In this document: in pieces, positions 1,269 to 61,200 of the stretch
Position numbering within the stretch: position 1 is the stretch's first letter
Layout of the letters: every line of letters starts with the position of its first letter
Source: an uncultured Clostridia bacterium
Lineage (GTDB): Bacteria > Bacillota > Clostridia > Christensenellales > UBA1242
Direction: 5' to 3'
Assembly: GCA_944383245.1 (NCBI GenBank)
Contig: CALWOU010000001.1
Coordinates: 30,524 to 94,523, forward strand
Length of the DNA stretch: 64,000 nt
Program-made: the position numbers and the translations under genes
Notes under the pieces: generated by a model
What the model saw: the letters and a program-made list of their open reading frames with translations, nothing else
What the model was told of the DNA's origin: nothing
The model's database searches: none

Positions 1269-1775
1269 CTAAATAAATCTACAGCAAAAGCAAGCAATAA
1301 TAGCGCACGCAACGTTACAAATTAGTGCAATTGGTATTGTGAGTAATGTTTTTTTCACATTAGTGGAAGCAAAATAAATACTGCTAACGTAGAAAATCGT
1401 GTCACTGCTACCCATTATGACGCTTGCACATTTCCCGATATAACTATCCACACCATAGGTTGAAAAAATATCTCTTAGTAGCACATATGCCGCATTTGAA
1501 CTAAATGGTCTAATTAGTGTCAATTCGCACACTTCTGGAGGTATTCCAATAAGGCGAAAAACAGGTGCTAAAAAATTGCATAGATATCCGCTAAGTCCAC
1601 TTGAACGAAAAAGTTCAACCGCCACAAACATTGCTATTATAAACGGGAGAAGTGAAGCCATAAGGGGAAGCGCGCCTTTTGCCCCTTTAACGAATGCAGA
1701 GTAGGCATCAACTCCCTTAATTAAAGCAAACAGCATTATAAACGCAATTAAAACAGGAATAAATAAATCAGCCAT
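1269..1775 (-). CDS. spmB: Spore maturation protein B-like nucleoside-recognition (Gate) membrane protein
   Basis: Start trimmed to MADLFIPVLIAF (M45 of the track ORF). It overlaps the spmA stop by 8 nt. Multi-TM and paired with spmA as in Firmicutes. Confidence 0.75.
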   Translation of the reverse strand: MADLFIPVLIAFIMLFALIKGVDAYSAFVKGAKGALPLMASLLPFIIAMFVAVELFRSSGLSGYLCNFLAPVFRLIGIPPEVCELTLIRPFSSNAAYVLLRDIFSTYGVDSYIGKCASVIMGSSDTIFYVSSIYFASTNVKKTLLTIPIALICNVACAIIACFCCRFI

Positions 1776-2337
1776 TTTTCTGCCTCTTTTTTCTATAAAT
1801 GCAGGCGACGAGCAATATTCCAAGAATTGTAGGAATAAAGGTTGATACAATTGTTGGCCATAAAATGGCGCTTGGGCTAACACTTCCCGCCACCGCGCGC
1901 ATTCCAATCACTGTGGTTGGAAGAAGTTGAATTCCTGTTGAATTTATAACAACTAACATAATCATTCCACGCGTTGCTTTTTTATCTCCTTTATCCATTC
2001 CCTGCATTGCTTTTATTCCATATGGTGTTGCCGCACTACCTATTCCAATTATGTTTGAGGCAATATTCAAACAAATATTTTTTTCAGTTTCCGCATCTGT
2101 TTTTCCAAATATATATTGCACAGGACGTGATAAAATCTTTGATAGTTTATGGCTTAATTTACAATCATCCATAACCTGCATAATGCCCATCCAAACCGCA
2201 TAAATTCCTATAAATTCTATGCACATTGTAACACCCATTTTAGCGGCTTCCATCATAGTTCCAACCACACTTGAAGGCGAAAAAATTGATAGCATAATTA
2301 GGCTAGAAATTATCATCACAATCCAAATTTTATTCAT
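1768..2337 (-). CDS. spmA: Spore maturation protein A-like nucleoside-recognition membrane protein
   Basis: Start trimmed to MNKIWIVMIISS, a canonical SpmA-type N-terminus. Contains GIGSAATPYGIKAM. Confidence 0.75.
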   Translation of the reverse strand: MNKIWIVMIISSLIMLSIFSPSSVVGTMMEAAKMGVTMCIEFIGIYAVWMGIMQVMDDCKLSHKLSKILSRPVQYIFGKTDAETEKNICLNIASNIIGIGSAATPYGIKAMQGMDKGDKKATRGMIMLVVINSTGIQLLPTTVIGMRAVAGSVSPSAILWPTIVSTFIPTILGILLVACIYRKKRQKNG

Positions 2338-2391
2338 ATAAAAAGTTATGCGAAAACTTGTCCACATATACTAAAATATGGTCAAAATGAA

Positions 2392-2485: not shown

Positions 2486-3184
2486 CTATGTGGTTGTAAA
2501 TCTCAAATCGTAATCGTAGGACTCTGAAATCGCATCCATAATAATTTTACACTTATCGTTATTTGACGTGTTTTCATCAATCCACTCATCTAAAGACTCT
2601 GAACTGATTGCATATGCTTGGAACAAAAAGTTTATAGAAGTTTCTTGAAATTCATCTCCAACAGATTCGTGCAATCTCAATTGGTTTTCTGCGATAACTG
2701 TAATTTCCTTATATTCATCAGGTTGTGGATTCAAAGTTATTAAGCATCTATACACATTTTGAGTGCCATTTGCTTCTTGCACGTAAGTATAGTCATACCA
2801 ATCGTTTGACGCACCCTTTATAAGTGGCACGCTATTATCATAGCTAACCAATTCTTCAGTGTCTAATTTATAAACATTTAATTTATACAAAACAGCGATA
2901 TAAATAGGAGTGTTTGAATTGTTATTTATAATCAATGGGGTGTTTTGCAAAAACTCGTTTGGCACAACGTTAACGCCGTTTGAAAGCACCATTTCACTTG
3001 CGCCACTTGCACCACCGTTTTCTTGAAATTGTATGTTTAAATTAGCCATAACAATTCTACCTGTGATTCTATTGCTCCTAAAACTATAATAAGCATAAAC
3101 CCCACCAAAGCCAATAGTAAGCAATAATAGTATTCCAAGAACGATTATAGTTATTGTTTGACCAGATACTTTTTTCTTAACCAT
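2486..3184 (-). CDS. TasA/camelysin-like secreted protein with SipW-cognate-type signal peptide
   Basis: N-terminus is MVKKKVSGQTITIIVLGILLLLTIGFGGVYAYYSF, i.e. KKK, then an h-region, then GG-x-[YF]A[YF][YF]S as in TasA/CalY-type signal peptides. Confidence 0.55.
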   Translation of the reverse strand: MVKKKVSGQTITIIVLGILLLLTIGFGGVYAYYSFRSNRITGRIVMANLNIQFQENGGASGASEMVLSNGVNVVPNEFLQNTPLIINNNSNTPIYIAVLYKLNVYKLDTEELVSYDNSVPLIKGASNDWYDYTYVQEANGTQNVYRCLITLNPQPDEYKEITVIAENQLRLHESVGDEFQETSINFLFQAYAISSESLDEWIDENTSNNDKCKIIMDAISESYDYDLRFTTT

Positions 3185-3439
3185 ATTATCCCCTAATATT
3201 TAAACATTTTATAAAAAAATCGACATTTAAGTCAAACAAAATACGACACATTTATACATATTTTTGTCAATTTATTTTTTTATCAATTTTATTGCGAATT
3301 AACTCAATAAAATTAGAGATATTTTAAAATATAAAACAAAATATTATGGTAATTTTGCTATTTTTTACCATTTTATGATATTTTCATTCAAAAATATTAA
3401 TTTTTATACAAAAACAATTAAAAATTTGTACAAAAGTAT

Positions 3440-3468
3440 TTGATTTTTAAAATAAAAAATTTTATAAT
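3440..3468 (+). promoter_or_regulatory. Candidate SigA-type promoter TTGATT-17-TATAAT ending 6 nt before the GTG start (leaderless-type geometry)
   Basis: TTGATT at 3440..3445, TATAAT at 3463..3468, GTG at 3475. No SD between them. Confidence 0.4.
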
Positions 3469-3474
3469 ATTTTC

Positions 3475-3858
3475 GTGGAATCTGATTTCGATAAATATAG
3501 TAAGTTATTAAGCATTCCAGACGACTTACTTATAGCAAAAATTAAGTACTCTCTCGCACTGCTAGGTATGAGTGAGTCGTATTTTTCGTTCCATTATCTT
3601 GTTACTATTTTGTTAAATTTAATAAAAACACCACAAATTGCAGATGAAACTGTTTTTAAAGACAGTGTGGATTCTATCGCACAAAAATACAAAATCGAAC
3701 CGCGCACAATCAGATACGAACTTGGAAGAATTTTAAATAGTTGCACAAATCCTGAGATAAAATCTAAATCTCAATACAATCTAAAAAATAATGGTGTGTT
3801 AAATAAAATAAGAGTGATTAAAGAATACATCTTAACCACTCTAACTAATATCATCTAA
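3475..3858 (+). CDS. Stand-alone Spo0A C-terminal-domain-like DNA-binding protein (no receiver domain)
   Basis: YFSFHYLVTILLNLI..VDSIAQKYKIEPRTIRYELGRILNS parallels Spo0A [37 protein letters not shown]. GTG start without an SD, so the start is uncertain. Confidence 0.55.
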   Translation: MESDFDKYSKLLSIPDDLLIAKIKYSLALLGMSESYFSFHYLVTILLNLIKTPQIADETVFKDSVDSIAQKYKIEPRTIRYELGRILNSCTNPEIKSKSQYNLKNNGVLNKIRVIKEYILTTLTNII

Positions 3859-4206
3859 AACGAAATTTTTAACCAAATAAATAAACTTGCAACAACTAGG
3901 TTTCTTTTCATTATTCCAAAACTTGCTAAGTTTATTTTTTAATCCTCTATTCCAACGCTTATCACGCAGATTTCTAATGTTCCGCTCAATGGTACACTGA
4001 TTTTTATTGTACTTTTTCGCGAGATAAGGAAATAACTCTTTTGAAAAAGAACGATAGGTTTTTGCTTCATTTATTAGCATATCCATAATGTCCACCAAAT
4101 AATAATAACCAATGTATTCATTAGTTATTCCAAGGTCACCCATTCTCTTTAGTAAGAAATAATTTTTTGAAACTTTTTCTTGGTATTCTTGAATTTTTTT
4201 GCCCAT
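3841..4206 (-). CDS. Stand-alone Spo0A C-terminal-domain-like DNA-binding protein (no receiver domain)
   Basis: LGITNEYIGYYYLVDIMDMLINE..LFPYLAKKYNKNQCTIERNIRNLRDKRWNRG..KPSCCKFIYLV aligns by eye along the whole Spo0A effector domain. Confidence 0.75.
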   Translation of the reverse strand: MGKKIQEYQEKVSKNYFLLKRMGDLGITNEYIGYYYLVDIMDMLINEAKTYRSFSKELFPYLAKKYNKNQCTIERNIRNLRDKRWNRGLKNKLSKFWNNEKKPSCCKFIYLVKNFVLDDIS

Positions 4207-4341
4207 AAATTCCCCTTTTGAGCCTGCAATACTAATTTACCATATTTTGGTAATATAGTCAAATATTTTTGTACAAAAATGTAGATTTTTGAACATTTTT
4301 CTATTTTCGTGACAAAAAAAAGGCATTAAAGCGACAATAGG

Positions 4342-4386
4342 CAAAAAAAATGAGTTGTTAAGAATACTAGTGAAAACATTAACAAC
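4342..4386 (-). terminator. Rho-independent terminator after secG
   Basis: GTTGTTAA(4354..4361)/TTAACAAC(4379..4386) stem followed by U8 on the minus strand. Confidence 0.6.
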
Positions 4387-4446
4387 TTGTTTTTTATAAC
4401 ACCACGATATATTATGGTATCACACTAGAATTAACAACTCAAACTT

Positions 4447-11541: not shown

Positions 11542-12744
11542 TTAACCAATGATTTCAGATACAACACCTGAACCAACTGTTCTACCGCCTTCACGGATAG
11601 CGAATCTCATACCTTTTTCAATAGCGATTGGGTGAATAAGTTCGATTTCCATAGAAACGTTATCACCTGGCATAACCATTTCAACTCCTTGAGGAAGTTT
11701 GATTGAACCTGTGATGTCGCAAGTACGGCAGAAGAATTGAGGGCGATAACCATTGAAGAATGGAGTGTGACGTCCGCCTTCTTCTTTCTTCAAGCAGTAA
11801 ACTTCTGCTTTAAATTTAGTGTGTGGAGTGATTGTTCCTGGTTTAGCAAGAACTTGACCACGTTCGATTTCGCTACGTTGCAAACCACGGATTAAAAGAC
11901 CAGCATTATCACCTGAACGAGCTTCGTCTAGTGACTTTCTGAACATTTCAATACCTGTGATAACAACTTGACGAGTAGGCTTAATACCAACTAATTCAAG
12001 AGTATCGTTAAGTTTAACAACACCACGTTCTACTCTACCTGTTGCAACAGTTCCACGACCAGTGATTGTGAACACGTCTTCAACCGGCATTAAGAAAGGT
12101 TTATCTGTATCACGAACAGGATCTGGAATGTAAGCATCAACAGCTTCCATCAATTCGTTGATGCAAGCGCAAGCTGGATCATCAACTTTACCAGCAGATG
12201 CAGCCTCTAATGCTTTCAATGCAGAACCACGGATAATAGGAGTGTCATCGCCTGGGAAACCATAAGATGAAAGCAATTCTCTAATTTCCATCTCAACAAG
12301 GTCGATAAGGTCTGGGTCATCAACCAAATCGGTTTTATTTAAGAATACAACAATGTAAGGAACACCAACTTGACGAGCAAGCAAAATGTGTTCTTTAGTT
12401 TGAGGCATTGGACCATCAGTTGCAGCAACAACAAGGATAGCACCATCCATTTGAGCAGCACCAGTGATCATGTTTTTAACGTAGTCTGCGTGTCCTGGGC
12501 AGTCTACGTGTGCGTAGTGACGTTTTGCAGTTTCATATTCTACGTGTGAAGTGTTAATTGTGATACCACGTGCTTTCTCTTCTGGGCTCTTATCGATTTC
12601 GTCATATCTCATTTTTTGAGCTTGACCTTTAGCAGCAAGAACCATAGTGATAGCAGCAGTTAAAGTTGTTTTACCGTGGTCAACGTGACCAATAGTACCA
12701 ATATTAACATGTGGTTTAATTCTTTCAAATTTAGCTTTTGCCAT
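11542..12744 (-). CDS. tuf: Elongation factor Tu
   Basis: [18 protein letters not shown] and NKTD motifs. 400 aa. Confidence 0.98.
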
Positions 12745-15728: not shown

Positions 15729-16100
15729 TTATTTTGGTCGTTTTGCGCCATATTTACTTCTACCTTGCTTACGTTTTTGCACAGCAGCAGTATCTAGCGC
15801 GCCACGAACAACGTGATATCTAACACCTGGTAGGTCAGGAACACGACCGCCTCTAACAAGCACTACGTTGTGTTCTTGCAAGTTGTGACCTTCACCTGGG
15901 ATGTAGCAAGTAGTTTCTTTACCCGTTGAAAGACGAACTCTACAAATTTTACGTAAAGCTGAGTTAGGTTTTTTAGGTGTGGTGGTGGTAACAGTTAAGC
16001 AAACTCCACGTTTTTGTGGGCAAGAATCAAGCAAAATAGATTGGCTTTTATCAACTTGTTTAACTCTACCTCTTCTCACTAATTGATTGACTGTAGGCAT
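15729..16100 (-). CDS. rpsL: 30S ribosomal protein S12
   Basis: [22 protein letters not shown]. Confidence 0.98.
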
Positions 16101-16187
16101 TTAATCCTCCTTATAAATTTTAAATTGCAACCTCTTTTTGGGTTTCCCCAAGTATAGACAAAGCAGCATTTTGTACAATACTGATTA

Positions 16188-16216
16188 ATTATAACAAAAC
16201 ACAATCAAATTGTCAA
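16188..16216 (-). promoter_or_regulatory. Consensus SigA-type promoter of rpsL: TTGACA-17-TATAAT
   Basis: tgtcaa at 16211..16216 and attata at 16188..16193 on the plus strand, with an exact 17-nt spacer. Confidence 0.75.
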
Positions 16217-16384
16217 TGGATTATGAAAATTTAATTAAGATTTTTTTGTATATTTTAGTGTAAACTATGTTCAACACTAAATTTTTATAAAAAGATGAAA
16301 AAATGTGTTAAAATCGTTATGAATAATCTAAGAAAATTGATAAAATGTTAACATAAAATATTTACTTTTTATGAGGAGTAAAAT

Positions 16385-16603
16385 ATGAAGAATTCAGAAG
16401 ACAAAGCAAGGAAATGTATATATCGCGTTGCTTATGACAAAGAAAATAGAAAGTGGCTTATTAAAAAGGACGGAGCAAAACGTACAATAGATTCATATCA
16501 CACAAAAGAAGAGGCAATGGAAAGAGTTAAAGAATTGTGTGAAAAGTATGATCTCAATTACGTTGTGCATAAAAAAGACGGCAAATTTCAAAAGAAAAAA
16601 TAA
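16385..16603 (+). CDS. DUF2188-like small protein
   Basis: YRVAYDKENRKWLIKKDGAKRTIDSYHTKEEAMERVKEL..VVHKKDGKFQ fits the pattern of the small conserved DUF2188 family. SD GAGGAG. Confidence 0.6.
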   Translation: MKNSEDKARKCIYRVAYDKENRKWLIKKDGAKRTIDSYHTKEEAMERVKELCEKYDLNYVVHKKDGKFQKKK

Positions 16604-16618
16604 ACAATATAAAGTCTT

Positions 16619-16644
16619 AAAAAACTCTCACGTGAGAGTTTTTT
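16619..16644 (+). terminator. Rho-independent terminator after the DUF2188 gene
   Basis: AAAACTCTC-acgt-GAGAGTTTT followed by a T-run. Confidence 0.75.
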
Positions 16645-16648
16645 GCAC

Positions 16649-16683
16649 AAAAAAGACCAAAGTTTTAAACTAAATTTGGTCTT
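16649..16683 (-). terminator. Rho-independent terminator after rplQ (end of the alpha operon)
   Basis: AAGACCAAA/TTTGGTCTT stem followed by U6 on the minus strand. Confidence 0.7.
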
Positions 16684-16700
16684 TTTGTTTTATATAAAAA

Positions 16701-39882: not shown

Positions 39883-42800
39883 TTAGTTTATAATTGAAAG
39901 CCTTATTCCGCTACCTTCAACCCAAGTGTTTAAAGTGAAATCAAATTCAAGAGTTTTAGAGTAACTTACCCTATTATCTGGGTCGGTTAGGTTGAATGAA
40001 CCTTTGAAACTTGCTGCATTATTGAAGTCTGAATTATTAACAGTTTTAATGAAACTACTATTTGCTGAGTTCTCATAATCAGTCATCCACCAATTACCGA
40101 AACCTAAAATATTAAATGACGTACGGATATAACTTTCACCATACTCAATTCCGTTTGATGAAGCAGCCTCAGTGTTGATAACCACGTGTTGCATACTTCC
40201 CGCAACTGAATCTTGTTGATACAAGTTGAAGTAGAAATTACCACTATTTGCAAAATCACTGCCTTGTCTATAATCAAACCAAGTATCTCTATAGAACTTT
40301 CCATAACCATCTAATGTGCTATTGACTGTTGCATATCTAAAACTTGCACCATCTGGGAAGATTAGCACAATTAAAGAGGTTACAGTGTTATTATTTGCAC
40401 CAACTAAGTTGCTATTTAATTGAACGTTTGAAATGTCGCCTGTTAAGATATATGCAGCGCCTGCAACATATTTATCGCCCGAGATTGTGTTGCGAGACAA
40501 TTCTTTTGTTAAATCGTTGTATCTACCAACATAAACTTGGTCAACCACTGCACCACAATTTCCAGCCGTTACATTGTTATTTGCAAAGTCAAAGTCACCC
40601 ATTTGAACAACAATACCAGCAACATTATTTCCGTAGATATCAGATGTTACAATAGAAGAAGTGATTTCTGAATCAGTATTTGAATTTAATGCCACAAGTC
40701 CGCCAACAAAGTGGTCTTTTCCATTGATTAGTGAACCAATAGTGTCAACATACACTTTTACACCACTAATTCTAGCATTATTTTCTGCTGCTGCACCGCC
40801 GATATATAGTCTATCAGCCGAAACACCACTAGCAATTGAAATGCCCTCGCCTGTGATTGTTGTGTTTAAAATTGTGTTGTTATTTGTTCCAGCAATACCA
40901 CCAATATAGTTTGTTGCGGTTGTGCTTTGAACGTTTACATCAATTTCAAGATTTACATTTTCGATAGTGCCATCGTTTAATCCTACCACACCACCAATTC
41001 TAGCATTTCCAACATTTGAACTTAAATTTACTATTACATTACCTGTGATGTTATTAACTCTATCCGCGTTTTGACCTACCACACCACCAACTCTAGAAAT
41101 ACCATAAATAGTTGAATTATTGACTGTAGAATTTTCGATTATACCGCTATTATTTACACCAACAAGTCCACCAACATTAACAAGTGTAGCAGAACTTGAA
41201 ACGGTTAAATTATTAACTTCAACATCTCTTACAATTGAATTGTTATCCATCGTTCCAACAATTCCACCAAAGTTGTTAATATCTTCAACAATTTCATTTG
41301 AGAAGTTAACCACTATATTAGAAATTTCTGAACTTGAATTTGCGGTGGTTGAGAACATACGCCCTGCAACTGCACCAACATTTGTAGCATTGATTGTTGT
41401 TGTAACTTCATCTAGTGTCACATTGGTTACTGTGCTATTATCTAAATATGTGAATAATCCAGCATCTGAGCCATTTCCACCACTCATCAATTTTAAACCA
41501 GTGATTGTGTGACCATTTCCGTTAAATACCGAATTTACAAGTGCCACAGGAGTGTAGTTTAATTTTGTTAAATCAATATCTGTTTGAAGAGATATTTTCA
41601 TTCCTGTTATAACACCATTCACAGCATTCACATTGATAAAGTCGATAAATGCTTGACTGTTGTTTTCAAGAGTGTCATCAATATCACCAACATTGTCTTC
41701 AGTTAAATCTTTTAATAGATATTGACTAGATAATGAACTTAAACTTGAAGTTGTCATATTAAGTTCTGGAACTGCACCTGGAGCGAGTGTCCAAGCAGAA
41801 CTATCCCACAAAACTTTTGAAGATTGACTAACTGCATAGAATACATAATCAGTTGGAGTAAGAGTTGCCACAGCATCTTGCATTGAAGCAAATTCTCTAA
41901 CTAAATATAACGAATTTATTTCATTAAAATATGTGTCACATAAATCTGCATCGTTTCTTATTGCGACAACACCATTAGTTGCAACAATATTTCCAGCAAG
42001 GTGATATAATGGTTGGTCAATATTCGCATTATAATTTGTTGCTTTTTCAATTGTTGAGATAAATGACGCATTGTCTGTGCCAACTAAAGCCGAATTTGAA
42101 AGTGACTCATAAATTGCACCAAGGTTTGTGTCTATTGTAAATTTTCCAACAAAACCAGCAATATCGCCTGTTGCATTTGCGCTTGTTATAGTTGAATTTG
42201 CGCTAGTTGCTTGAATTGTTCCTATATCTAGTGCACCAACAAGTCCGCCCGCTGTAACATTAATAGTGCCAGCATTAGCATTGCCTAAAGTAATGCTTAC
42301 ATTTTCAGTTAAACTTGTAGATAATTTTGAAGTTGAACCTGTAAGTGCACCAATCACACCACCTGTTACACTGCTATCTTTCAAGTTCGTGATATTAGCG
42401 CTATTTACAAACACATTTGAGATAACCGAATTATTTGCAAGTCCTGTTAAAGCGCCTGCGTAATCATAACTTCCGCTAATTGTTGCGTTATTTAAATATA
42501 AGTTAGTTACGTTTGCATTATTAAATGAATAGAATAGACCTGCATTTGCATAATCAGTGCTAGTTAAATTTAATCCACTGATTGTGTGATTATTTCCGTT
42601 AAACGAACCTGAGAAACCAACCCAAGTGTCTGTTGAATAATTGTAACCAATTGGTTGGAATGATTGAGATAGAGAAATATCTCTTAATAGCAAATAGTGT
42701 GAATCAAGTGTGAAACTATCTCCAATTTTTTCTAAATCCGCTTGATTTTCTATATAGTAAGGATATTCCTCTGTTCCATTACCAATGTGCACACTAATCT

Positions 42801-43131
42801 TAAATTCTGGGCAACGTTCATTAGTTGTTGTTATAACTAAAGTTGTTTCGCCACCATTTAATGCAGTGTAGTAACCTTTTTCTTCATCAAAGTTTATCAT
42901 ACTTTGAACTAGCGGTCCACCTGCGTTATAATTGAATGTGGTGTTTCTATAACTATAAGGACGATTGATAACAATATCTAAATCTTCCAAACTTACAACG
43001 TCGCCAACGTTGCAATAGATTTCTTTTGTGTTAATACTAATTGTTTCGTCATCGCGCATAAAATAATATGTAGTAAGTCCTAAACTTACTCCCACCACAA
43101 TGACAACTAGGAAAATTAAAAATTTCTTCAT
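39883..43131 (-). CDS. Surface protein with N-terminal signal anchor, Ig-like module and GLUG-motif repeats (1,082 aa)
   Basis: Starts MKKFLIFLVVIVVGVSLGL. Module start is FSGSFNGNNHTISGLNL..AGLFY. About 13 repeats of type VGGLVGVNNSG, VGGVVGQNADR, IGGVVGLNDG and IGGIAGTNNN. Confidence 0.8.
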   Translation of the reverse strand: MKKFLIFLVVIVVGVSLGLTTYYFMRDDETISINTKEIYCNVGDVVSLEDLDIVINRPYSYRNTTFNYNAGGPLVQSMINFDEEKGYYTALNGGETTLVITTTNERCPEFKISVHIGNGTEEYPYYIENQADLEKIGDSFTLDSHYLLLRDISLSQSFQPIGYNYSTDTWVGFSGSFNGNNHTISGLNLTSTDYANAGLFYSFNNANVTNLYLNNATISGSYDYAGALTGLANNSVISNVFVNSANITNLKDSSVTGGVIGALTGSTSKLSTSLTENVSITLGNANAGTINVTAGGLVGALDIGTIQATSANSTITSANATGDIAGFVGKFTIDTNLGAIYESLSNSALVGTDNASFISTIEKATNYNANIDQPLYHLAGNIVATNGVVAIRNDADLCDTYFNEINSLYLVREFASMQDAVATLTPTDYVFYAVSQSSKVLWDSSAWTLAPGAVPELNMTTSSLSSLSSQYLLKDLTEDNVGDIDDTLENNSQAFIDFINVNAVNGVITGMKISLQTDIDLTKLNYTPVALVNSVFNGNGHTITGLKLMSGGNGSDAGLFTYLDNSTVTNVTLDEVTTTINATNVGAVAGRMFSTTANSSSEISNIVVNFSNEIVEDINNFGGIVGTMDNNSIVRDVEVNNLTVSSSATLVNVGGLVGVNNSGIIENSTVNNSTIYGISRVGGVVGQNADRVNNITGNVIVNLSSNVGNARIGGVVGLNDGTIENVNLEIDVNVQSTTATNYIGGIAGTNNNTILNTTITGEGISIASGVSADRLYIGGAAAENNARISGVKVYVDTIGSLINGKDHFVGGLVALNSNTDSEITSSIVTSDIYGNNVAGIVVQMGDFDFANNNVTAGNCGAVVDQVYVGRYNDLTKELSRNTISGDKYVAGAAYILTGDISNVQLNSNLVGANNNTVTSLIVLIFPDGASFRYATVNSTLDGYGKFYRDTWFDYRQGSDFANSGNFYFNLYQQDSVAGSMQHVVINTEAASSNGIEYGESYIRTSFNILGFGNWWMTDYENSANSSFIKTVNNSDFNNAASFKGSFNLTDPDNRVSYSKTLEFDFTLNTWVEGSGIRLSIIN

Positions 43132-47580: not shown

Positions 47581-47907
47581 TTATTTTTCTACAATAAAAT
47601 AAAATGAATTCTGATCTTGTGGTAGTTTTGCGTAGCGGTATAAAATATCAAAATAACTATCTTTTTCTAAATCTATATTAAGCTTTTTATTCATAAGTGG
47701 ATTAAAAATTAGTTTATCCACAAATTCGGTGAAAAAGTATGGCAATTTTTTATATGTTTTTTTATCTACGTTCATCAACTCAAAATCAATAAAACCATAT
47801 TGAGTTTTAAATTTTTGTATGTCTCTAAGTGAAGTGTAGATATAAAGATTGTCTTTTTTTTCAATTTCGCCAATTGAAAAATCTTTATAGCAAACTTTTA
47901 TTTTCAT
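47581..47907 (-). CDS. HipA N-terminal-subdomain-like small protein (HipS-like candidate)
   Basis: MKIKVCYKDFSIGEIEKKDNLYIY..KKLPYFFTEFVDKLI..DSYFDILYRYAKLPQDQNSFYF parallels HipA residues 1-100 (LVTWMNNQRVGEL..FNFFDNLLPD..PFDLLSEIGRDSVGAV). The ATG sits 6 nt after GGAGG, inside the kinase 3' end. Confidence 0.55.
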   Translation of the reverse strand: MKIKVCYKDFSIGEIEKKDNLYIYTSLRDIQKFKTQYGFIDFELMNVDKKTYKKLPYFFTEFVDKLIFNPLMNKKLNIDLEKDSYFDILYRYAKLPQDQNSFYFIVEK

Positions 47908-49474
47908 CACCCACCTCCACTATTCCTAATTTTTTATCATATCTTAAACCTATCTTTTCAAGCATACTTTCATCTTGATAATTCTTGCTTTTTCTTATCA
48001 AAGCATTGAAACATTTAAGATATTTTTTTAATAATTTTTTGGTTTCTTTCAACTCTTTTTCTTGATCTAAAGAAAGATTCGTTTTTTCTTCCATATCTCT
48101 AACCCAAGCGCGCAATTCTTTAAAAGATGAATATTGAAGTGAGAAATCTGTTCGGGCATAATATTTTGATTTACTTTTATCTTGTTTTCTTGTATAAAAC
48201 ACTGAAGGGTCATCAAGTAAAAAATATTTCAATTGATCATAAGTTCTATGATAAACAATTCTCCTATCCATTGCCATCATTAGAGAAGTGGTGTTATATT
48301 TCTTACGTTTTTCATCTAAAATTTGTTTTGCTTTTTTAACCTCTTCAGAATCTAAATTATTTAACAATTCTTCGCATTCATCATACCATTTCCAAGTTGC
48401 CAATTCGCCTTTTGTTTGTTGCGTGAAATTTTTATAACTATAACTGTAACTTTCATCATTAAAATAATTGTCAAGATCGGCAGCAAAATATTGCAAAATT
48501 TTAGCAAATTCTTCAGGCGAATACTCATCTTTATGTCTTTGTATAACCGCATAAGTGACCTCTAGCGGAATGTATTGTACACCATCACGCCTAAATCTGC
48601 ACTGCTTAATTTTATCTTTTACGTTGGCTTGTGTTTTTTCTTTCCAACTATCTAATTCTTGCCTTGAAAATAGCGCATTTAAACCATAATAATTTTCAAA
48701 TTCCTCAATAGTTTCTTCAAACTTTTCACCAAAAAGTGTTTGAAATTTAATCAACATATCCTTATACGTTGAATTTAACAATTTTTGCTGTTCCATTCCA
48801 TAAATTTTGCAATCGTTAGGGCTTAATTTATACAATTTTGAATAAACTCTCAAAAAAGCATTAGCATTATCATAAATTGGTGCTAAATCAAGTTTTCTTA
48901 CTCCGTTTTCTTCTTTAATCACAAATGCCAAGTTTTCAGAGTGCCTATCTCTTTGGTTTATTAGATAGTCAAAGCAGGAAAGTTTATTTAATTTTTCTAT
49001 TAGTTCTTCGCGATTGATTTCAACACCTATTGTTTTTTTTGTTCTAAACATAATTGTATCCATAACCTCGCTTGACGTGGTTGATGACGAAGTGCTATCA
49101 ATATATCCGCCAAAATTATCATACATAAAATGCTCACCAAAATCGGGAGATATTATTCCAATCGCCTGTTGAATATGGTCAATTGCAAGTTTGCAGTCCA
49201 CACAATCAATGCCGACCTTCTTTGCAATAAACGATGTGAGAAGTTCAGCAAAAATTTCGTGTTGAGCATTTAGCGCGCCAAGTGTTGGATACTTAATGAA
49301 ATAACGTTTGCCATTAATCGTTATAAATTTGCTTGCCGTTATGCCTGTTTTTGAACTGAATTCTTCATTTTTTTCTTCAACAAAAACTACACCTGGTCTA
49401 GTAATACCATTTATATCAGCCACTTTTCTTTCAAATAATTTATCTTTTAAGCCTTCGTATAATTCTATATTCAT
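47885..49474 (-). CDS. HipA-like Ser/Thr kinase core lacking N-subdomain 1, with a ~300-aa K/E-rich C-terminal extension
   Basis: FDYLINQRDRHSENLAFV (D-x-H-x-x-N catalytic loop) and LAPIYDNANAF (Mg-binding D). KRYFIKYP..NAQHEIFAELLTSFIAKKVGI matches the HipA core layout. Confidence 0.7.
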   Translation of the reverse strand: MNIELYEGLKDKLFERKVADINGITRPGVVFVEEKNEEFSSKTGITASKFITINGKRYFIKYPTLGALNAQHEIFAELLTSFIAKKVGIDCVDCKLAIDHIQQAIGIISPDFGEHFMYDNFGGYIDSTSSSTTSSEVMDTIMFRTKKTIGVEINREELIEKLNKLSCFDYLINQRDRHSENLAFVIKEENGVRKLDLAPIYDNANAFLRVYSKLYKLSPNDCKIYGMEQQKLLNSTYKDMLIKFQTLFGEKFEETIEEFENYYGLNALFSRQELDSWKEKTQANVKDKIKQCRFRRDGVQYIPLEVTYAVIQRHKDEYSPEEFAKILQYFAADLDNYFNDESYSYSYKNFTQQTKGELATWKWYDECEELLNNLDSEEVKKAKQILDEKRKKYNTTSLMMAMDRRIVYHRTYDQLKYFLLDDPSVFYTRKQDKSKSKYYARTDFSLQYSSFKELRAWVRDMEEKTNLSLDQEKELKETKKLLKKYLKCFNALIRKSKNYQDESMLEKIGLRYDKKLGIVEVGDENKSLL

Positions 49475-52266: not shown

Positions 52267-55200
52267 TTAAGCTAAAACAACAATTCCACCAGTGTTTATT
52301 TCGTCACGTATTTCATTATTTGGATTGCCTTCATCATCTAGACCATCTACAAATGTTAAATATACTGTTCCACCACCTATTGAAATGCTTACTGATTCTG
52401 TGAAATAATATGCTCCGCCTATAGTTGAAGTTGGGAATGTATGTCCATCAAATAATCCAGGTTGCAAAATATTATCTATTGTTTGTGAATCATCGGTTAA
52501 ATATTTGTAACGAGTGAATAGTTGAATTTCGTTATTGGTTAAGAATTTATTGAGGTTATACATTTCGTCAATTTCGTTTGACACCAACGAACTAACTGCC
52601 AAAACACCATTTTGCAAAGAATAAGAACTAGATAATGCATATAGCGTATTATTTTTCACTTTATAGTTATAATCAACTCTATATTGATATTCATCTGTTA
52701 CTAATGTGCTAGGCTCGTAATCTGTTGGATCGTCTATGTAGTAATTAGATGAATTACTGCTATTTAAGAAATTTTTAAAATCAGTTAAATTATTTATTTC
52801 TCGAACACCTCCGTTGCTATTATAGAAAGTAAGTTTGTAACCCACTTTAAACAAATCATTATAGGTTTCATCCAAAATTTGATTATAAATACCTTTTACT
52901 GTTTCGCCATCAAATTCTGTTTCAAACATTTCATATCCACCATCGTAATAATAGTAAGTAGCGTTTTGTGTGATAGATATAGAGCTATCGGTAGCCGTTA
53001 TTGTGTAATAATTACTATCTTGAGCAGAACCTGTGAATGCAGTTTCATAAGGATTAGTAAATGAATATGGATAGATTTCAACCCAAACGCTATTGCTTGA
53101 TGAAGTTATTATTTCATTTATTTCAAATGCTCCTTCAACTGGGTCATCTTGAATATGTTCGATTTTGTAATAACCATATTCAACCATAGGTTCTCCGTTT
53201 TGATCGGTGGTACTGTGTGAACCTTGGATATAATCAATGCCAGGATTTCCATCAGGTTGAATGGTGCCTGCCCAAGTGAATTCTGCATATTTTTTCAAAG
53301 TGCCGTACATACCTATCCTTGCATAATATGCATTTTTCATATATGAGTAACCCTCATAATATGTTGTTGTGCGCTCTTGCCCAAATTCTCCACCTGTTAT
53401 TGTGAATGAACCATTACTTTCTTGAGGCAGATTACTTGATATCGTTTCATCGAAATAGAATGTTACAGGTCGATTATCTATATATGCCTTTAAATCTGCA
53501 GTTATTCCTGTTCCCCATGGCTCACCATTAACATAAAAGTTGCCGTTTCCTCTATCTTCTAATTTATTTCCATGGTTAGGTGTATATGTATACCCGTTAT
53601 CGGTAGTATAAGAACCTCTAATATAATACAAGTTATCATACAAAATATATTCGCCAGGATTTAACTCTGATAAATCTGCTAAAATTTGAGTTGGAGCATA
53701 TTCAACTTCAACACCGGCAGCAATTTTATAATAAGCGCCGTTATGATAAATATAATAACGATAAATATTACCAGTTTTTGTTTGTCCATTTTCAGTAAAC
53801 TCAAATGTGCCAGGTTGTGTTCTTGGATCTGAACTTTCTGTAATAGTGATATCTCTATTAGGCGCATTTCCTGAAGTTGTTTCTAGTGAATTGTTTAACA
53901 CCACGTTAACTGTGCTTGTCGTTATTGTAGGATCAACATATAAATAGTAGTTATCATAATAATCTGCAGGTCTAACTGATGAATAGTAAACATACACCAT
54001 TCCACCATATGAAGCTAAATTTTCATCGATAAAATTTATATTCCCATCACTATTATACAAAATTCTCTTGCTATAAGTTTGTGACATTAATCCAAGACTT
54101 TGATCCATTTTTTCAAAATAGGTTGTTTTTGCCATCATGTTAGCATTAACTGCAATGTTATATGTTGACATAACTAATACACCAATTCCTACACCAAGCG
54201 CAGGGGCAGCAAACCATACAGGAATAAATGCTAATCCCCATCCTCCAAGAGGAATACTTGCTAAAATAATAACTAACCCGGCAAGAATAGCTGTTATAAT
54301 GCTCAATATATCTACTTGTGGATCTGGGAAGATATTTTCTGCGATTGTGGTATTCGCTCCATTTACATTAAATACACTTCCGTCTTTTGGTAATTTTATT
54401 GCATCGTCAGGTAAGTCTGAACTTATTGTTTTATTATTATAAACTGTTAAAAATATAAAATACACACCGTCATAACCAGATGGTCCATCAAGATCATATT
54501 CGCCATTATAATAACCTACATTATAAACCAAAAATGCTAGGTCAATATCTGTCTGTCCATCTCCACCAAGCGTTGGAGCTCCATAATGTATTTCATAGAA
54601 TGGTTTGCTTAGGCTTTTTCTATCATTATTGGCATTAGGTGTTGCTGCACGTGTTTCATCGCCATATTGCCAATTAAAATAAGTTAATCCATTAAATTGG
54701 CTATTATTTCCGTGATTTAGGTCTATATAAAAGGTTTGAGAATTTGAATTGGCGCCGGTAATCCAGTCGCCTACCGCTTCCCACCATTGCTTTGTTTCTT
54801 GTTCATCATAATATGGGAAAGCATATCCTCCTTCTGAAGAAGTGTAAGGCGTGGCGACACCAATTGCTGAATATAGAGTTGGATAATCTTCCATTTCTTC
54901 ATATATTGTGTAAACAATATAATCATCATCATAGATGTTATTTGTCACGTGATCATTGCCTGGTTGAATAGCAAGGTCGTCTCTTCCAGATAGACCGAGG
55001 TTTGCGATTGTGCCGACTTTGGTTATGTTGGCTGCGTCGTAAACAACTGCGATTGAATCCCAACCAACAGAATTTTCGCTATTAGGATTTTCTTCTTTTG
55101 GAATGTTTCTTTGGAGTTTTCTAAATGTTGTGTATTCCTTTGCCCAACCTGAGATTGCGCCCGATTGCATATCGGCTGCGTCGTTGCCTGTTGGTTTAAC

Positions 55201-58200
55201 ATTTGAATTTATTGCAGTGTTATTTAAAGGACTTGATTTTGGAACAGTTTTGCTTGCTGAAATTTGGAATGTATCCAAATTCACATAGTAGGCTTGAGCA
55301 ATTAAGTTTATGTATTCGCTATTAGAATCGTCATAACTGAAACTGCTTGAACCATCCGCATAATTTGAATTTTCGATCGTGTTAATTGTGAATGGATAGT
55401 TATGAGTGCCTTGAACTGTTACTTCTCTTCTGTTGTCAGTTCCGCCTTTAGCAACTTTTAGCATACCAACAAGTCCACCAAAGTTGGTTGCAACATCTTG
55501 ATCTCCACCTATTATTAGACCATCAACATGGTTAGTGATTATCTGACCGGTGGAAGTCATTGTTTCTTGTGTTAGATTACCTTCCAATCTTCCGATAAGT
55601 CCGCCGATATAGTATGAATTGTTAGTGCTAAGAGAGATGCCAACCCTAACAGGATTATCTTGACTTTCTGTATTTAAAGCTAAAATTTGAATTACAGATG
55701 CATCTCCTTTCAACTTTCCGAACAATCCGCCAACATACATTCCATTGATAATAGCAAGATTAGTGGTTTCCTCTCCAACTGTTATTGAGCTAGGCTGAAT
55801 GTTGATTTCGGTAGTTGCCGACTCGCTATTTGATTTTACTTTGATATTAGCATTCGAGAAATTTGAAAGTGTATCATTAGTTTCTGGCATTCCCAATCCA
55901 CCAATAACACCGCCAACATTGTAAGCACCTGAAATATTAACATCACCTAACAAGTTTGGCAACAACACTTGCTCGCCAACTGTACCGCTTGTTGTGGTAT
56001 CATACAAGTAATAACCATAGAACGTGCCGACATTGACACCTGAATATGCCTGAATATCAACAGAAATGTTATTTGTGCTTGCGTTATTTTCAACATCGCT
56101 AGCAAGCGCAGACATATTAACCGAACCAATAAATCCACCAAAACCAGTTTGAATATCATTAAAATCAGGTTTTTTAATTTGATTTGAATCAGTTGGATTG
56201 GTTACTATTCGTGAATAATCAAAAGGTACGTCTGTTTTTATATAATCATTATTTTCTTGTGAATCTCCAACCATTAAACTTGCCATATTATTTGAAATTG
56301 TGGAAATAGTGCTTGAAGTGTCATTATCGGTTGAACTTGGTGCTTGAACACCTTCTTCTGACGAAGTGACTAAAACATCCAAAACATTGTTATACTTAAC
56401 TTCGCTAGAAGATACAAGCGTACCTATAAATCCACCTACGCTTGTTGGAACGTAATACTTCCACCTTGACGATGCTGTATTAGTGCTTTCATTAATAATT
56501 AATTCACGTTGTGCAAAATAAACGCCTTTAACTTCGCTTGAACTATCTTTTGCACCAACAATGCTATTTCTTATTGTTGTGCCACCTTGGACATAGCCAA
56601 CTAATCCACCGACACTCGCGTTTCCGTAAACATTACCTTGAGATAGGATTGAATCGATTGTTCCGCCCGTCATCAAACCGACTGCACCGCCAACGTTTAA
56701 CACTCCGTATACGTTTGATTCTGATGAAGATGCTTCTGTATATAATCCGAATGAGTTTCCTAGAATATCGTAATAAACATTTTCATTCTCTTGGTCTGTG
56801 TCAAACTTATAATTCGAATTACCAGAATCTGAATATATTCCACTTTCAGTTTTGTAATCCTTTCCATTTATCTCATTTGGAATGCCACTAGTTAAGTAGC
56901 CTTTATCCATATTTCCGATTACACCACCAACGTTTTGATAACCGGATATCATTGAATTATTTTTTAATGCGTATAAATAGACATCTTCTTCTACTCCACC
57001 GATATTTCCTATAACTCCGCCAACATTTATGCTCTTATAGCCATAGTAACTACCTACACCACCATTTTCATATAAGAATATGTTGTTGTCCTTATTATCA
57101 TCTATAGAATTGTACCAACTCCTATATTCAGGAGAGGTTGTTATCCTTCCCTCATTTGTTAACTTAGCAGCGACAGAACCTTCAAACAATCCAACCACAC
57201 CACCAACATTGACAATTTTCACATCTGAAACCGTTAGTTTTTCTTCGCCTGGTGTTCTAAAATTTATGTTAATTTGATTTTTGTTTTTTATTTCTTGCAT
57301 TGTGCGAGTGTTTCCATCTTCATTTTCTGAATATAAGAACAATTCGCTAGATTCGCCAGATTCGCTAGATTTGCTAGATTTGAATTTACCAAACAATCCA
57401 CCCCAATTTTGAAGAGTGAGAGGGAAGTCTGAGTCCGCTTGTGGAGTTGTAAGAGTTGCATAAGCATCGTCTGAAGCTAAGAAGTTCCAATAAGTTTTTG
57501 CTTCAACATCTTGGTTATTCCAATTGAAGTCTATTATTTCATTAATGTTTCCGCTAACCAAACCAATTGCTCCACCAACGTTTGTTACACCGGTGATTTC
57601 AACTTCATAGTTTCCTAAATTTTCATTGTTAATGTTGATTTTTCCGCCTGCATATGCACCTATAATTCCGCCAACATTGTAGCCATTGACTGTTAATTTT
57701 GTGTTAATTGAATCGTTATTGCCATCCTCTGAGCCTAAAGAAGCTTCAATTGTTCCATTCAGCATTTTTCCAACCAACACACCGTAACCACTATTTTCTT
57801 CAATCGATTCATCGGACAACACTTCCTCTACGTCAATTATGATTTCATCGTTATTTCCGCCGTGACTAAATCCTGAGATAGTAACATTGCCCTTAACCAA
57901 CTTTGCAACCAACAAGCCAAAGTAACTTTCAATTGTTTGATTATCGTCCTCGTCCGTTTGCGCTTTGGCTACAATATTTGTCACTTCGCTTGATGCTATA
58001 GAGCAATTTTCAATTGTCACAGATCCACCGTTTGCCTCACCGATTAGTCCGCCAAAACTATTAATGTAGAGTATGTTTCTTTCAGAAATTGAAGGAGAAA
58101 CAATAACTTCGTTTATTCCAGCTGAACTAGTCACAGTGCTTTCGCTAGTAGGCTCTATTGTTTGACCAACAAGTCCGCCAAGCATTTTAACTGCAATGTC

Positions 58201-61200
58201 CTCGTCTCCTGCGTGAAGATTAATAATTGTGTTGCCACCATTAATTGTTCCGCTTGACATTTGACCTATTAAGCCACCAGCATAATTTATCTGACCAAAT
58301 TTTGCGTGCCATTCAACATTTGGGTTATCATCTGAATCAATTGTGATCGTTCCGCCACTCATTCTGCCCGCTATTAGGCCCGCACTATTTGCTGAATCTA
58401 ACTCAAACGATGCAGTTTCTTCATCTGGCACAATTGTTGAGAAGTTTGTAATAGTTATATCTCCTGAAATAATTTCGCCGAATAATGCACCGATATAGTT
58501 GCCATTATCTGCTGTATTTTCCACTCCAAGACCTGTTATTTGGCTAATTTTCTCACGATTTTCAGCAACAAAACTAATATTTGCAACTGTGATTGAATTG
58601 TTTTGAGTTGGATCAATATTCTCTAGGTTAGTTGAATTAACTGTAACACCTAACGCACCGCTATTTTCTAAGTTGAGGAAATTTCCAAGTTTAATGTAGC
58701 CAATATATGCGTTATTTATATTAGTTAGTAAGCCATTGTGAGAAAGGTTTGTGATAGTTACAGCATCATCCAAACTTTCACTTTCGCTAGTTAAACCAGT
58801 GAATTTAAAGTTTTTATTAGATATTAATAGTCCATTAAATTTGTTTTGACCAGCGACATTATAATATAAATCAGAATCTCCAAAATTAGTATCTCTACCT
58901 ATTGCATTCCAATTTGTTGTGATATTTTGGTTATTGTTTATTCCGTCTAAATCATAGATAATCATATAATTTAGGCAGGTTGAAACAAATTCGCTCTCAA
59001 GAGTTGAATCATATGCATTTTTATTTACCCTAGTCAATCCTTGAATACTTGACAACACTCCTAAATGAGGAATTTTAAACACGTTATTCATTATTGAAGT
59101 ATCGGTTGCGCCGTTTGAGAAGTTGTTGATATCTAATTTAACATTTAAGTTTGCATCCTTGTTATCATCGTCCATATCACTTGTGATAGAACCCGTGCCT
59201 GTATACAATTGATGTGCTAAAGAATTTACCGTCCATTCGTTTTCAGTGGTGGTTGTAGACATCAATTTATTATCTCTTAGGATTGGATAGTTATAGTTGT
59301 AGCCATAAGTTTCAGCATATGGATTGATATAATAATTTACCACACCGTTGTTTGTTACAGAGTTGATAACAGTGTACCAATTTCCGTCCAAGAAAGGTTC
59401 GTTATCCTCATTTGTAACCTTCATAATATTTAAAGTGTCTGTTGCAACTAAACTTCCATTATTAATACCAATTGAATCATTCGATTCTATATTTGCAAGG
59501 CTATCGATGTAGTTCTTACTACCCACAAAACCTGTAGCAGATGCGTTAGAATCTAATTGATAATAATAACTATTTCCTCCCTCAGAAATATTTTCAACAA
59601 CACCCGCCATATAAGTGTTATAAACATATCCGTCTTCAACATAACCTATCATACCTGCTGCAGGATACTCATTATTGATATAACCTGTGAAATACGCATT
59701 TTGCAAGTTTCCATTGTTGTGCGCGATAAGTCCAGAAGTAAGTCCTGCACTTGTTAATAATATTTCGGCAGATGAATAGATATTTGAAGCAAAGCCTGAA
59801 TTTCTACCTATTATTAATCCTAAATCGCTTGATCTGCCTACTTCAATATTCAAGCCAACGCCTTGAACTGATAAGTTGTATGCAACACCTGAGTTTTGAC
59901 CAATAATTAAGCCAATTACATCATCATTGGAATTTAATATTACGTTTGTTGTGTCTGCCCCGCTTGTTAAATTGATATGAATATTTGATATCGCACTCTT
60001 ATCGTTTACGTTTGCAAATATACCTGTGTACGAATCCATCGTTGATAAATTTGAAGCGTTTAGTTGATAATCGTTTTCACGATCACCGCCAATAATAAAT
60101 CCGTTAATCTCTCCGTTATTATAACCATTGATTGCTTGAAGAGTTGTTACATTTGAACTAATCAAGTAATATGCGTAAGTGCTTGATATTAAATCGTATG
60201 AAGAGTTATTGTTTTCTATTACATATGGATTTAAAATGCTTCCTTGATTATACTGATATCCACTAGGCCCTGGCTTCAAAACAGAATGATTGATTAACAT
60301 CTGTTGCAAACTTGTGATATATGGCACTTTTGAACCAAGTTCAGACCATAGGTTAATCTCTTGATTACTTACGAAATTTCCGTTGTAATTATTCGTTGCG
60401 TTAACTAAAGTGTAAACCGGAATATTATATCCAACATTATCGTTTTGTGTTGTTAATGCTAAATCTGAAGAATAGTAAACATCTGTAATTGTGTTAGTGT
60501 TATTCTCGCCACCTCCCACAAAACCATACAACGCGCCCGAACTTACATAAGGTAAACTATTTCCAACAAGGTTATTTAAGAATATGCTAACTAGAGATAT
60601 AACTCTATTTAATTCTATCCTAGCGCTTGAACCCATTAATCCGCCTAAACGAATTACAGAACTACCAGCAATATAACCCGCGTTTTTAGGATAAATTCTT
60701 CCGACTGCAATTGAATCGGTGATTATAGCACTGTTTGCCGAACCAACAATTCCGCCAGCATATATTATATTAGTTGATTGTGAACCAATTTGTGCTTCTT
60801 CAACATATGCCATACTTTCACTTATAGAAACTGATGAACTTTGGTCTGCATTAGCAACAATTCCGCCATAGTAAATTGCAGATATGCTGTTTTCAGCGCC
60901 AAATGTGTTTACATTTCCTCTAAATAGATTTTGTTCTATATTCACTGTTGAAGTGTTCGCCTCAATATATCCCACTCCAAGCGAAACGTTTGCTAGCGTG
61001 CTAACACTCATTTCGCTTAAGTTAATATCTGCTGTTACTCCATTTAATCTAATAGGAGAATTAGACATAGCTCCACTTTGGTTAAAATATCCAATCAAAC
61101 CAGCAACATTTATATTGCTTCCAGCTGTTCCTGAAAGCTCTGATTGTGAACCTACTAGGCTTACATCTGCCAAAATTGTTGATGAAGATATACTAGAATC

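Follow-up and report, generated by a model that had tools for sequence, protein, structure and literature searches.

The window analysed here is a 64 kb stretch of DNA from an uncultured Clostridia bacterium (assembly GCA_944383245.1, contig CALWOU010000001.1, positions 30,524 to 94,523), and the subject of this analysis is a convergent pair of small open reading frames (ORFs) near its beginning, named gene A (the plus-strand ORF) and gene B (the minus-strand ORF). Gene B (3841..4206, minus strand) starts with ATG and encodes a 121-aa protein consisting of a stand-alone Spo0A effector domain (Spo0A_C), and gene A (3475..3858, plus strand) starts with GTG and encodes a diverged 127-aa paralog with the Spo0A_C fold. 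In textbooks, Spo0A is the master regulator that governs endospore formation and is gated by phosphorylation. The positions of the two genes, their convergence and the overlap of their coding 3' ends by 18 bp (3841..3858, on both strands) agree with the initial annotation of this sequence, which had described the pair as paralogs of Spo0A's DNA-binding domain that lack the receiver domain. A receiver domain is indeed absent from both proteins, since lengths of 121 and 127 aa and flanking intergenic regions of ~240 and ~290 bp leave no room for one, and promoters and terminators directly precede the ORFs. The data show the identity of the two proteins, their paralogy, purifying selection, the leaderless geometry and the conservation of both the architecture and the boxes; the binder of the boxes, the sign of the regulation and the role of A are inferences. 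Nearly all other genes in the 64 kb lie on the minus strand, and they encode housekeeping functions, including pgk, tpiA, gpmI, secG, trpS, tuf/fusA, ribosomal-protein operons, prfA and recD2.

Gene B is clearly a stand-alone Spo0A effector domain. Against the Pfam family Spo0A_C (PF08769) the protein scored 67.5 bits (E 1.2e-18, cut-off (gathering threshold) 25 bits) over profile positions 5-101 of 104, and against the NCBIfam Spo0A equivalog TIGR02875 it scored 49.2 bits, which is below the cut-off of 200, and matched model positions 156-251 only, corresponding to the C-terminal third. In a search of the Protein Data Bank (PDB), the B-family profile found 1LQ1/1FC3 with an E-value of ~1e-12 (5e-13), with TIERNIRN aligned to VERAIRH of Spo0A, and the motif LFPYLAKKYNKNQCTIERNIRNLRDKRW quoted in the initial annotation is present in B and aligns to Spo0A in this same comparison. 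The AlphaFold model of B had a mean predicted local distance difference test score (pLDDT) of 90.9, and in Foldseek it matched 1lq1_D with template modelling scores (TM) of 0.69/0.77 and a root-mean-square deviation (rmsd) of 2.4 Å; all top seven matches were Spo0A-C, and the E-value reached only 1.5e-3. The recognition-helix motif (V/I)ER.IR is present in B (recognition helix CTIERNIRN), TIERNIRN is almost unchanged in 22 diverse family members, and E74, R75, I77 and R78 are invariant among them. The DNA contacts of Spo0A have reportedly been described at the level of residues by Zhao et al. 2002. The helix-turn-helix (HTH) region of B has a net charge of +7. The 100 clusters of the B family obtained by profile search were all 78-170 aa long, matched PF08769 only, and none carried a receiver domain. 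The identity of B to Spo0A-C is only ~25-30%, and its ortholog in Ca. Onthoplasma faecipullorum (HJD05360.1) bears the NCBI name 'sporulation initiation factor Spo0A C-terminal domain-containing protein'.

Gene A is a real gene under purifying selection, encoding a diverged paralog of B with the Spo0A-C fold. The resemblance of both ORFs to Spo0A_C, on which the initial annotation was based, exceeds chance for B by the score of 67.5 bits and for A through profile-profile comparison, reciprocal matches of hidden Markov models (HMMs) and predicted fold. In the direct search with the Pfam model, B passed the cut-off of 25 bits and A stayed below it (14.6 bits, E 0.033); A also had no match to TIGR02875. 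BLASTP aligned A and B in register with 25% identity across 72 residues, comparison of the A-family and B-family alignments by hhalign gave a probability of 89% (E 2e-6), and the family HMMs of A and B each matched the members of the other family in every locus (E 1e-4 to 1e-12). The A family is conserved in 14 close clusters, and an exhaustive profile search yielded only 44 representative clusters, all 66-152 aa long; weak or sub-threshold Spo0A_C matches were observed in 31 of these 44 representatives (best E 9e-6), with no other Pfam family recurring. Since the A-family profile had no match among PDB sequences even at E 10, the homology of A is shown by profile-profile comparison together with the fold. 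The AlphaFold model of A, predicted from A sequences alone, reached a pLDDT of 88 and a predicted TM-score (pTM) of 0.84, and the best PDB structures in Foldseek were 1fc3_B (TM 0.64/0.78, rmsd 2.8 Å) and 1lq1_D (TM 0.59/0.68), with all non-Spo0A matches at TM ≤ 0.4 except one de novo designed protein (0.52). In BFVD, the sole good matches were phage proteins annotated as Spo0A_C (TM 0.56-0.68). The Foldseek E-values of the A model were not significant, and since the genuine B model reaches just 1.5e-3 at similar TM-scores, the E scale is compressed for this small helical domain. Thus, in the superposition on the Spo0A effector domain that the initial annotation had suggested as a check, both models superpose on Spo0A-C.

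Homologs of A are 123-127 aa long with 64-98% identity, and the ratio of nonsynonymous to synonymous substitution rates (dN/dS) is 0.11-0.23 over the full length, with changes mostly at third codon positions. The A ortholog of Ca. O. faecipullorum (HJD05361.1) is labelled at NCBI as a hypothetical protein.

The host is assigned to Ca. Onthoplasma, and the relatives of this DNA are Ca. Onthoplasma spp., which belong to Christensenellales at NCBI and to the family UBA1242 in GTDB. Genomes of UBA1242 are ~0.7-1.0 Mb in size, and the presence of sporulation genes in them was described as unexpected (PMC12306168). At least 12 species have the convergent A/B pair as a conserved module of the chromosome, and a B-type convergent partner was found at all 11 GTDB species loci and likewise in each of the metagenomic relatives that were examined (related loci are given L numbers here). 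The conserved order is [tex or pgk-tpiA-gpmI-secG] - B - A - p232 - spmA - spmB. In the more distant L030 and L031, B occurs alone, directly downstream of tex, and in L033, metG lies between B and A. Because distant genomes have B alone or separated from A, B is taken to be the older core gene, with A and p232 present in a sublineage.

A common layout was observed for the promoters of the two genes, consisting of the box TTTGTACAAAA, 3-4 nt, and then the -35 hexamer (TTGACT/A at B, TTGATT at A). The sigma-A-type promoter of A (TTGATT-17-TATAAT, 3440..3468, plus strand; -35 3440-3445, -10 3463-3468) is identical in 12 species, and the operator-like box TTTGTACAAAA (3425..3435, plus strand) ends 4 nt before the -35 hexamer and is kept upstream of A in 10 of 14 species. 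A degenerate upstream box, TTTATACAAAA, is located at 3403..3413 (plus strand), 22 bp upstream of the A-promoter box, and T(G/A/T)T(A/T)CAAAA repeats resembling it, with ~21-22 bp spacing, are also found in relatives. The sigma-A-type promoter of B (TTGACT-17-TAAATT, 4234..4262, minus strand) has a TG upstream of its -10 hexamer, its operator-like box TTTGTACAAAA (4267..4278, minus strand; the same on both strands as TTTTGTACAAAA) also ends 4 nt before the -35 hexamer, and the Shine-Dalgarno region of the gene, AAAAGGGGAAT (4209..4219, minus strand), is conserved. In most species the B promoter contains a pair of boxes separated by 20-21 bp (by 31 bp in L030); the distal box, 20 bp upstream of the B box in the window, has degenerated to AATGTTCAAAA (4287..4297, minus strand) in the clade of the window and is a perfect second TTTGTACAAAA in most other species.

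The exact 11-mer TTTGTACAAAA was present in the B upstream region at 17 of 17 loci, and the promoter pattern matched the core TTGTACAAAA in 14 of 17 B promoters. Within ~195 kb from these 17 loci, exact TTTGTACAAAA was confined to the promoters of A and B, the sites at 3425-3435 and 4267-4278 being the only ones in the window, and B promoters had the box even where the lineage has no A next to B. The core of the box, TGTACAA, and the 0A box, TGTCGAA, differ at the two central bases, positions 4 and 5. The initial annotation had expected both proteins to bind 0A boxes. Binding of the canonical box is not supported, as the pair's own promoters carry TGTACAA; for A in particular, 0A-box binding also finds no support in a recognition helix that lacks the E-R..R motif. 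TGTCGAA as the pair's own operator was rejected, because it is absent from the A/B locus and occurs once in the 64 kb, compared to ~7 expected occurrences.

The locus is best described, with a probability of about 0.6, as a two-gene module of paralogous receiver-less Spo0A-effector-domain proteins, in which B would regulate its own expression through the TTTGTACAAAA boxes and A would act as a modulator. In the proposed mechanism, B acts as a transcription factor that belongs to the Spo0A_C family and binds DNA and that, having no receiver, would not need phosphorylation; it should be active by itself, to an extent determined by its abundance, because the isolated DNA-binding domain of Spo0A binds its targets without phosphorylation (PMC3485338). 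B is the likeliest protein to bind the invariant boxes upstream of its own and the A sigma-A -35 hexamers, because the recognition helix and the box are co-invariant, the box occurs only at the B and A promoters, and it is positioned upstream of the -35 hexamer. B is predicted to auto-regulate, most likely positively because the boxes lie at about -45 and -66, and to co-regulate A. Sites similarly placed just upstream of the sigma-A -35 hexamer are known from Spo0A-activated promoters such as spoIIG. Promoter homology together with paralogy indicates that A originated when B and its promoter were duplicated in inverted orientation; A has kept the fold, has lost the E-R..R motif and is probably expressed from a leaderless mRNA. 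In the circuit, A may serve as a partner or an antagonist of B, or it may be a regulator of different specificity, for which the gene p232, divergently adjacent to A in the ancestral orientation, would be a candidate target.

Several observations weigh against this description. The (V/I)ER.IR motif is not kept in A, where the aligned positions read TIRYELG and are variable across the family, and the HTH region of A has no net charge, which makes DNA binding by A doubtful; since its recognition helix is not conserved over the family, A is a poor candidate for the binder of an invariant site. The A promoter is without a box in L028 and L029. No TTTGTACAAAA was found at any gene other than A and B in the ~195 kb searched, so that no regulon is defined. 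In L033, TGTCGAA is present at 1360 and 4579, in both the A and the B promoter, which hints at a second input.

These two sites belong to a total of nine TGTCGAA sites across the 195 kb, and others are found in two distant species, at 11714 and 11807 in L001 and at 7820 in L031, where a short Rho-like gene (rho) has them in its promoter or leader. Such canonical sites hint at a regulator with canonical Spo0A specificity that may act in the clade, possibly a full-length Spo0A. The boxes could be operators of another regulator, such as an unrelated factor or a full-length Spo0A whose gene lies elsewhere, with A and B as downstream effectors or competing decoys. The non-random placement of TGTCGAA, in L001 and L031 at the promoter or leader of rho and in L033 at the promoters of A and B, and the sporulation genes reported from UBA1242 genomes (PMC12306168) both speak for this explanation. 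It is nevertheless considered unlikely, given that the TTTGTACAAAA box co-occurs with B genes at all 17 loci and nowhere else in the ~195 kb, that the near-invariance of the B recognition helix parallels the invariance of the box, and that TGTACAA alters exactly C4 and G5. Spo0A contacts G2, C4 and G5 of TGTCGAA, and mutating C4 or G5 lowers its binding ~10-fold (PMC3485338).

Occurrences of box-like sequences outside the module were also recorded. A metagenome scan for tandem TTGTACAAAA boxes returned at least 120 stretches, and among the matches listed, which were mostly contigs of 40-48% GC or iteron-like arrays, none had A or B genes. Four unrelated low-GC metagenome contigs (L073, L116, L122 and L140) contain iteron-like arrays in which repeats of 19-21 bp with TTGTACAAAA follow one another in tandem, and no A/B genes. 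In the window, a 600-bp gap without any ORF of at least 110 aa (16101-16700), located upstream of the gene at 15729-16100, which we take to be rpsL from its size and position alone, holds two near-matches to the box, ATTGTACAAAA at 16169 and TTTGCACAAAA at 16642. The total of one-mismatch matches to the box in the window is no higher than chance.

With regard to the start of gene A, the initial annotation had pointed out that TTGATT-17-TATAAT ends 6 nt ahead of the GTG codon with no Shine-Dalgarno sequence, which is a leaderless geometry. This geometry is kept across species, as a -10 hexamer (TATAAT in most), exactly 6 nt and an in-frame ATG or GTG were found in 13 of the 14 species that have the two genes side by side, as well as in L033. 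Most species start A with ATG, whereas the window and O. faecipullorum use GTG, and L017 carries an insertion. There is thus strong comparative support for translation of A from a leaderless mRNA.

At the 3' ends, an intrinsic-terminator-like hairpin with a U-tract, NKIRVIKEYILTTL (3801..3842, minus strand), is located inside the last codons of A, directly after the stop codon of B, and would serve as the terminator of B. Compared to shuffled sequence, this hairpin had z-scores of -2.8 in the window, -4.6 in L001 and -3.6 in L015, the last with a compensated stem change. Its folding was not significant in the distant L020 and L029, and since it is not conserved in these distant genera, the hairpin is not universal to the module. 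For A, a weak candidate terminator consisting of a long-range stem and a U-run (3879..3948, plus strand; -10 kcal/mol, z -2.1) was found in the 3' coding part of B, ~20-90 nt into that gene. The coding overlap of A and B is 17-21 bp in most species and 4 bp in L029, and in L028 there is a gap of 8 bp. The two transcripts probably overlap by tens of nt to ~130 nt, which allows interplay at the RNA level.

The initial annotation had gone further and proposed that the convergent 3' overlap makes the genes mutually antisense, forming a bistable either/or switch. The maintenance of the coding-end overlap in most species would fit this model, as would the weakness of the A terminator, owing to which the A transcript may extend ~130 nt or more into B. 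Against it, the ORFs share just 18 bp, a good terminator of B follows ~45 nt after the stop codon, and the box common to both promoters predicts co-regulation, not mutual exclusion; in addition, L028 has lost the overlap, a distance of 2.4 kb separates the genes in L033, and short overlaps are to be expected at the coding density of 0.90-0.93 in these genomes. An antisense switch is consequently regarded as quite improbable, and a co-regulated module under B is preferred.

Both genes and both promoters are contained in a cassette of ~1 kb (~3322..4340), which is inverted relative to the closest related species. Between identical flanks, the opposite orientation was observed in L001/L007/L013, L017 and L015 (compared cassettes: L001 5851-6880, L017 2909-3916, L015 4907-5836), and the orientation of the window is common to its conspecifics L005 and L006 and to the distant L020-L029 and L033, which represent more distant genera. 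Distances calculated from A, B and the flanking proteins gave the topology (((L001,L017),window),L015),L020, and with these orientations at least two independent inversions are required by parsimony. We interpret this not as a switch but as a self-contained module that was inverted repeatedly during evolution. A phase-variable, invertible DNA element whose orientation controls expression might be suspected from these two or more events between the window species and its closest relatives. It is highly improbable, because both promoters lie inside the cassette, the secG terminator hairpin (4343..4397, minus strand) insulates it from upstream transcription, no recombinase gene is nearby, and the flanking inverted repeats are weak and AT-rich; moreover, each species shows one orientation, in three of three conspecific sequences and in all ~30 contigs of the O. 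faecipullorum group. An inverton was accordingly rejected for want of a cognate recombinase nearby, a strong flanking repeat and polymorphism within species.

The idea that the plus-strand ORF is spurious, as an antisense shadow or conserved just through its overlap with the B terminator, could appeal to its score below the Pfam cut-off, its annotation as hypothetical only, the GTG start and the missing Shine-Dalgarno sequence, and it is effectively refuted by the dN/dS of 0.11-0.23 across the entire length, in addition to the conservation of an ORF of 116-127 aa among 14 species, with identities as low as 35%, a confident AlphaFold model and a conserved promoter of its own.

The possible target p232 (2486..3184, minus strand) is divergent from A, encodes 232 aa with a predicted N-terminal membrane or signal segment, and adjoins the pair in at least 13 species. 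Its N-terminus is conserved as MVKKKxSGQTIxII...LLLLT..FGGVYAYYS, which may resemble SipW-type (TasA/camelysin) signal peptides; the protein had no match in Pfam, NCBIfam or PHROG. In the window, the p232 promoter contains TGTCGAT in its spacer and TGTCGTA just upstream of the -35 hexamer. Next to p232 lies an spmA/spmB-like pair with Gate domains (1269-2367, minus strand), with homologs in L001-L033, and this pair is unusually strongly conserved, being 90-97% identical between species whose A, B and p232 share only 40-55%.

Elsewhere in the window, an ORF of 3,862 aa (52267-63855, minus strand) was found that occupies more than 1% of a genome of <1 Mb, has no Pfam match and may run past the end of the window. 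N, G, S and T are abundant in it, a single hydrophobic segment is located around residues 3179-3229, and it probably encodes a giant surface protein. Two further proteins are otherwise unannotated, one of 529 aa (47885-49474, minus strand) with a weak HipA_C match, and a secreted one of 1,082 aa (39883-43131, minus strand) with a marginal Peptidase_M26_N match. Over positions 1-64000 there are no tRNA genes and, despite large ribosomal-protein operons, no Rfam family at the gathering threshold, and no ribosomal-protein leader motifs were detected in the 64 kb.

Compared to the Spo0A-C domains of Bacillus and Clostridioides (1FC3, 1LQ1; PF08769), B shares sequence, fold and the E-R..R motif, A shares the fold, and the tandem 0A-box-like sites just upstream of the sigma-A -35 hexamer at the A and B promoters correspond to those of the Spo0A-C system. 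Canonical Spo0A-C domains are highly conserved. The pair differs from canonical Spo0A in lacking the receiver and the hinge and in its putative site, TGTACAA instead of TGTCGAA, and B differs further in reaching 49 bits against the 200-bit equivalog cut-off and ~25-30% identity to Spo0A-C. Auto-regulation of spo0A itself is known (PMC3485338). It is tempting to extend the comparison and to propose that in UBA1242, with genomes <1 Mb, B is the only Spo0A-type regulator, the phosphorelay input having been lost and replaced by an expression-driven, auto-regulated circuit of B and A with the re-tuned 0A box TGTACAA, an extension to which we give little credence at present. If true, B would be a natural phosphorylation-independent Spo0A controlling the remaining sporulation in these bacteria.

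Receiver-less forms of Spo0A have been studied as laboratory constructs. In B. subtilis, a Spo0A whose N-terminus is deleted (sad67; Ireton et al. 1993) is constitutively active according to its citation in PMC10294663, and, as far as these sources describe them, sad67 and the purified Spo0A domain (PMC3485338) are receiver-less effector domains, as is B, which bind DNA and work without phosphorylation. Their behaviour, as described there, is the premise for expecting B to be intrinsically active. Unlike these laboratory constructs, B represents a natural conserved family, whose activity would be set by expression level or by partners.

Truncated, effector-only spo0A homologs have also been described in phages of the human gut (Schwartz et al. 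2023 mBio, PMC10294663). The phage proteins and the pair have in common the effector domain only, a length of ~100-160 aa and the expected independence from the phosphorelay; the A model superposes on phage proteins, and B matches two PHROGs. Matches of B to 11 faecal phage contigs were only distant (24-31% identity), A had no match in PHROG, and no B-type (CTIERNIR) or A-type (NKIRVIK) genes were found in IMG/VR. In contrast to the phage homologs, A and B are chromosomal core genes in conserved housekeeping synteny, vertically inherited across the family, and they form a paralog pair with a common operator. A phage origin was rejected in view of the neighbours pgk, tpiA, gpmI, secG, tex, spmA and spmB, the conserved synteny and the absence of relatives in IMG/VR.

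Effector-only spo0A homologs from gut phages (PMC10294663) and the domain-only annotation at NCBI are thus already known; among the NCBI 'Spo0A C-terminal domain-containing' proteins, the B ortholog is so named, whereas the A family is still hypothetical. No description of the A/B pairing, the common altered box or the leaderless A start was found in the literature searched. What appears to be new is a B family of genome-reduced Clostridia that is inherited vertically, belongs to the core genome and lacks the receiver throughout; another paralog family, A, which is unannotated, shares the fold and is paired with B in a conserved convergent arrangement; and an altered 0A-like box common to both genes, together with a conserved leaderless start of A. 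A receiver-less version of Spo0A has been kept as a core gene, with its own deeply conserved operator, across a family of small-genome uncultured gut Clostridia. This would provide a testable case of a signal-gated regulator rewired to run without its signal, through auto-regulation, a paralogous partner and possibly a 3' antisense overlap, and it provides a candidate binding site and two small proteins suited to in vitro tests. The comparison also gives the A proteins a family assignment and sets the 'truncated spo0A' of phages in a cellular context.

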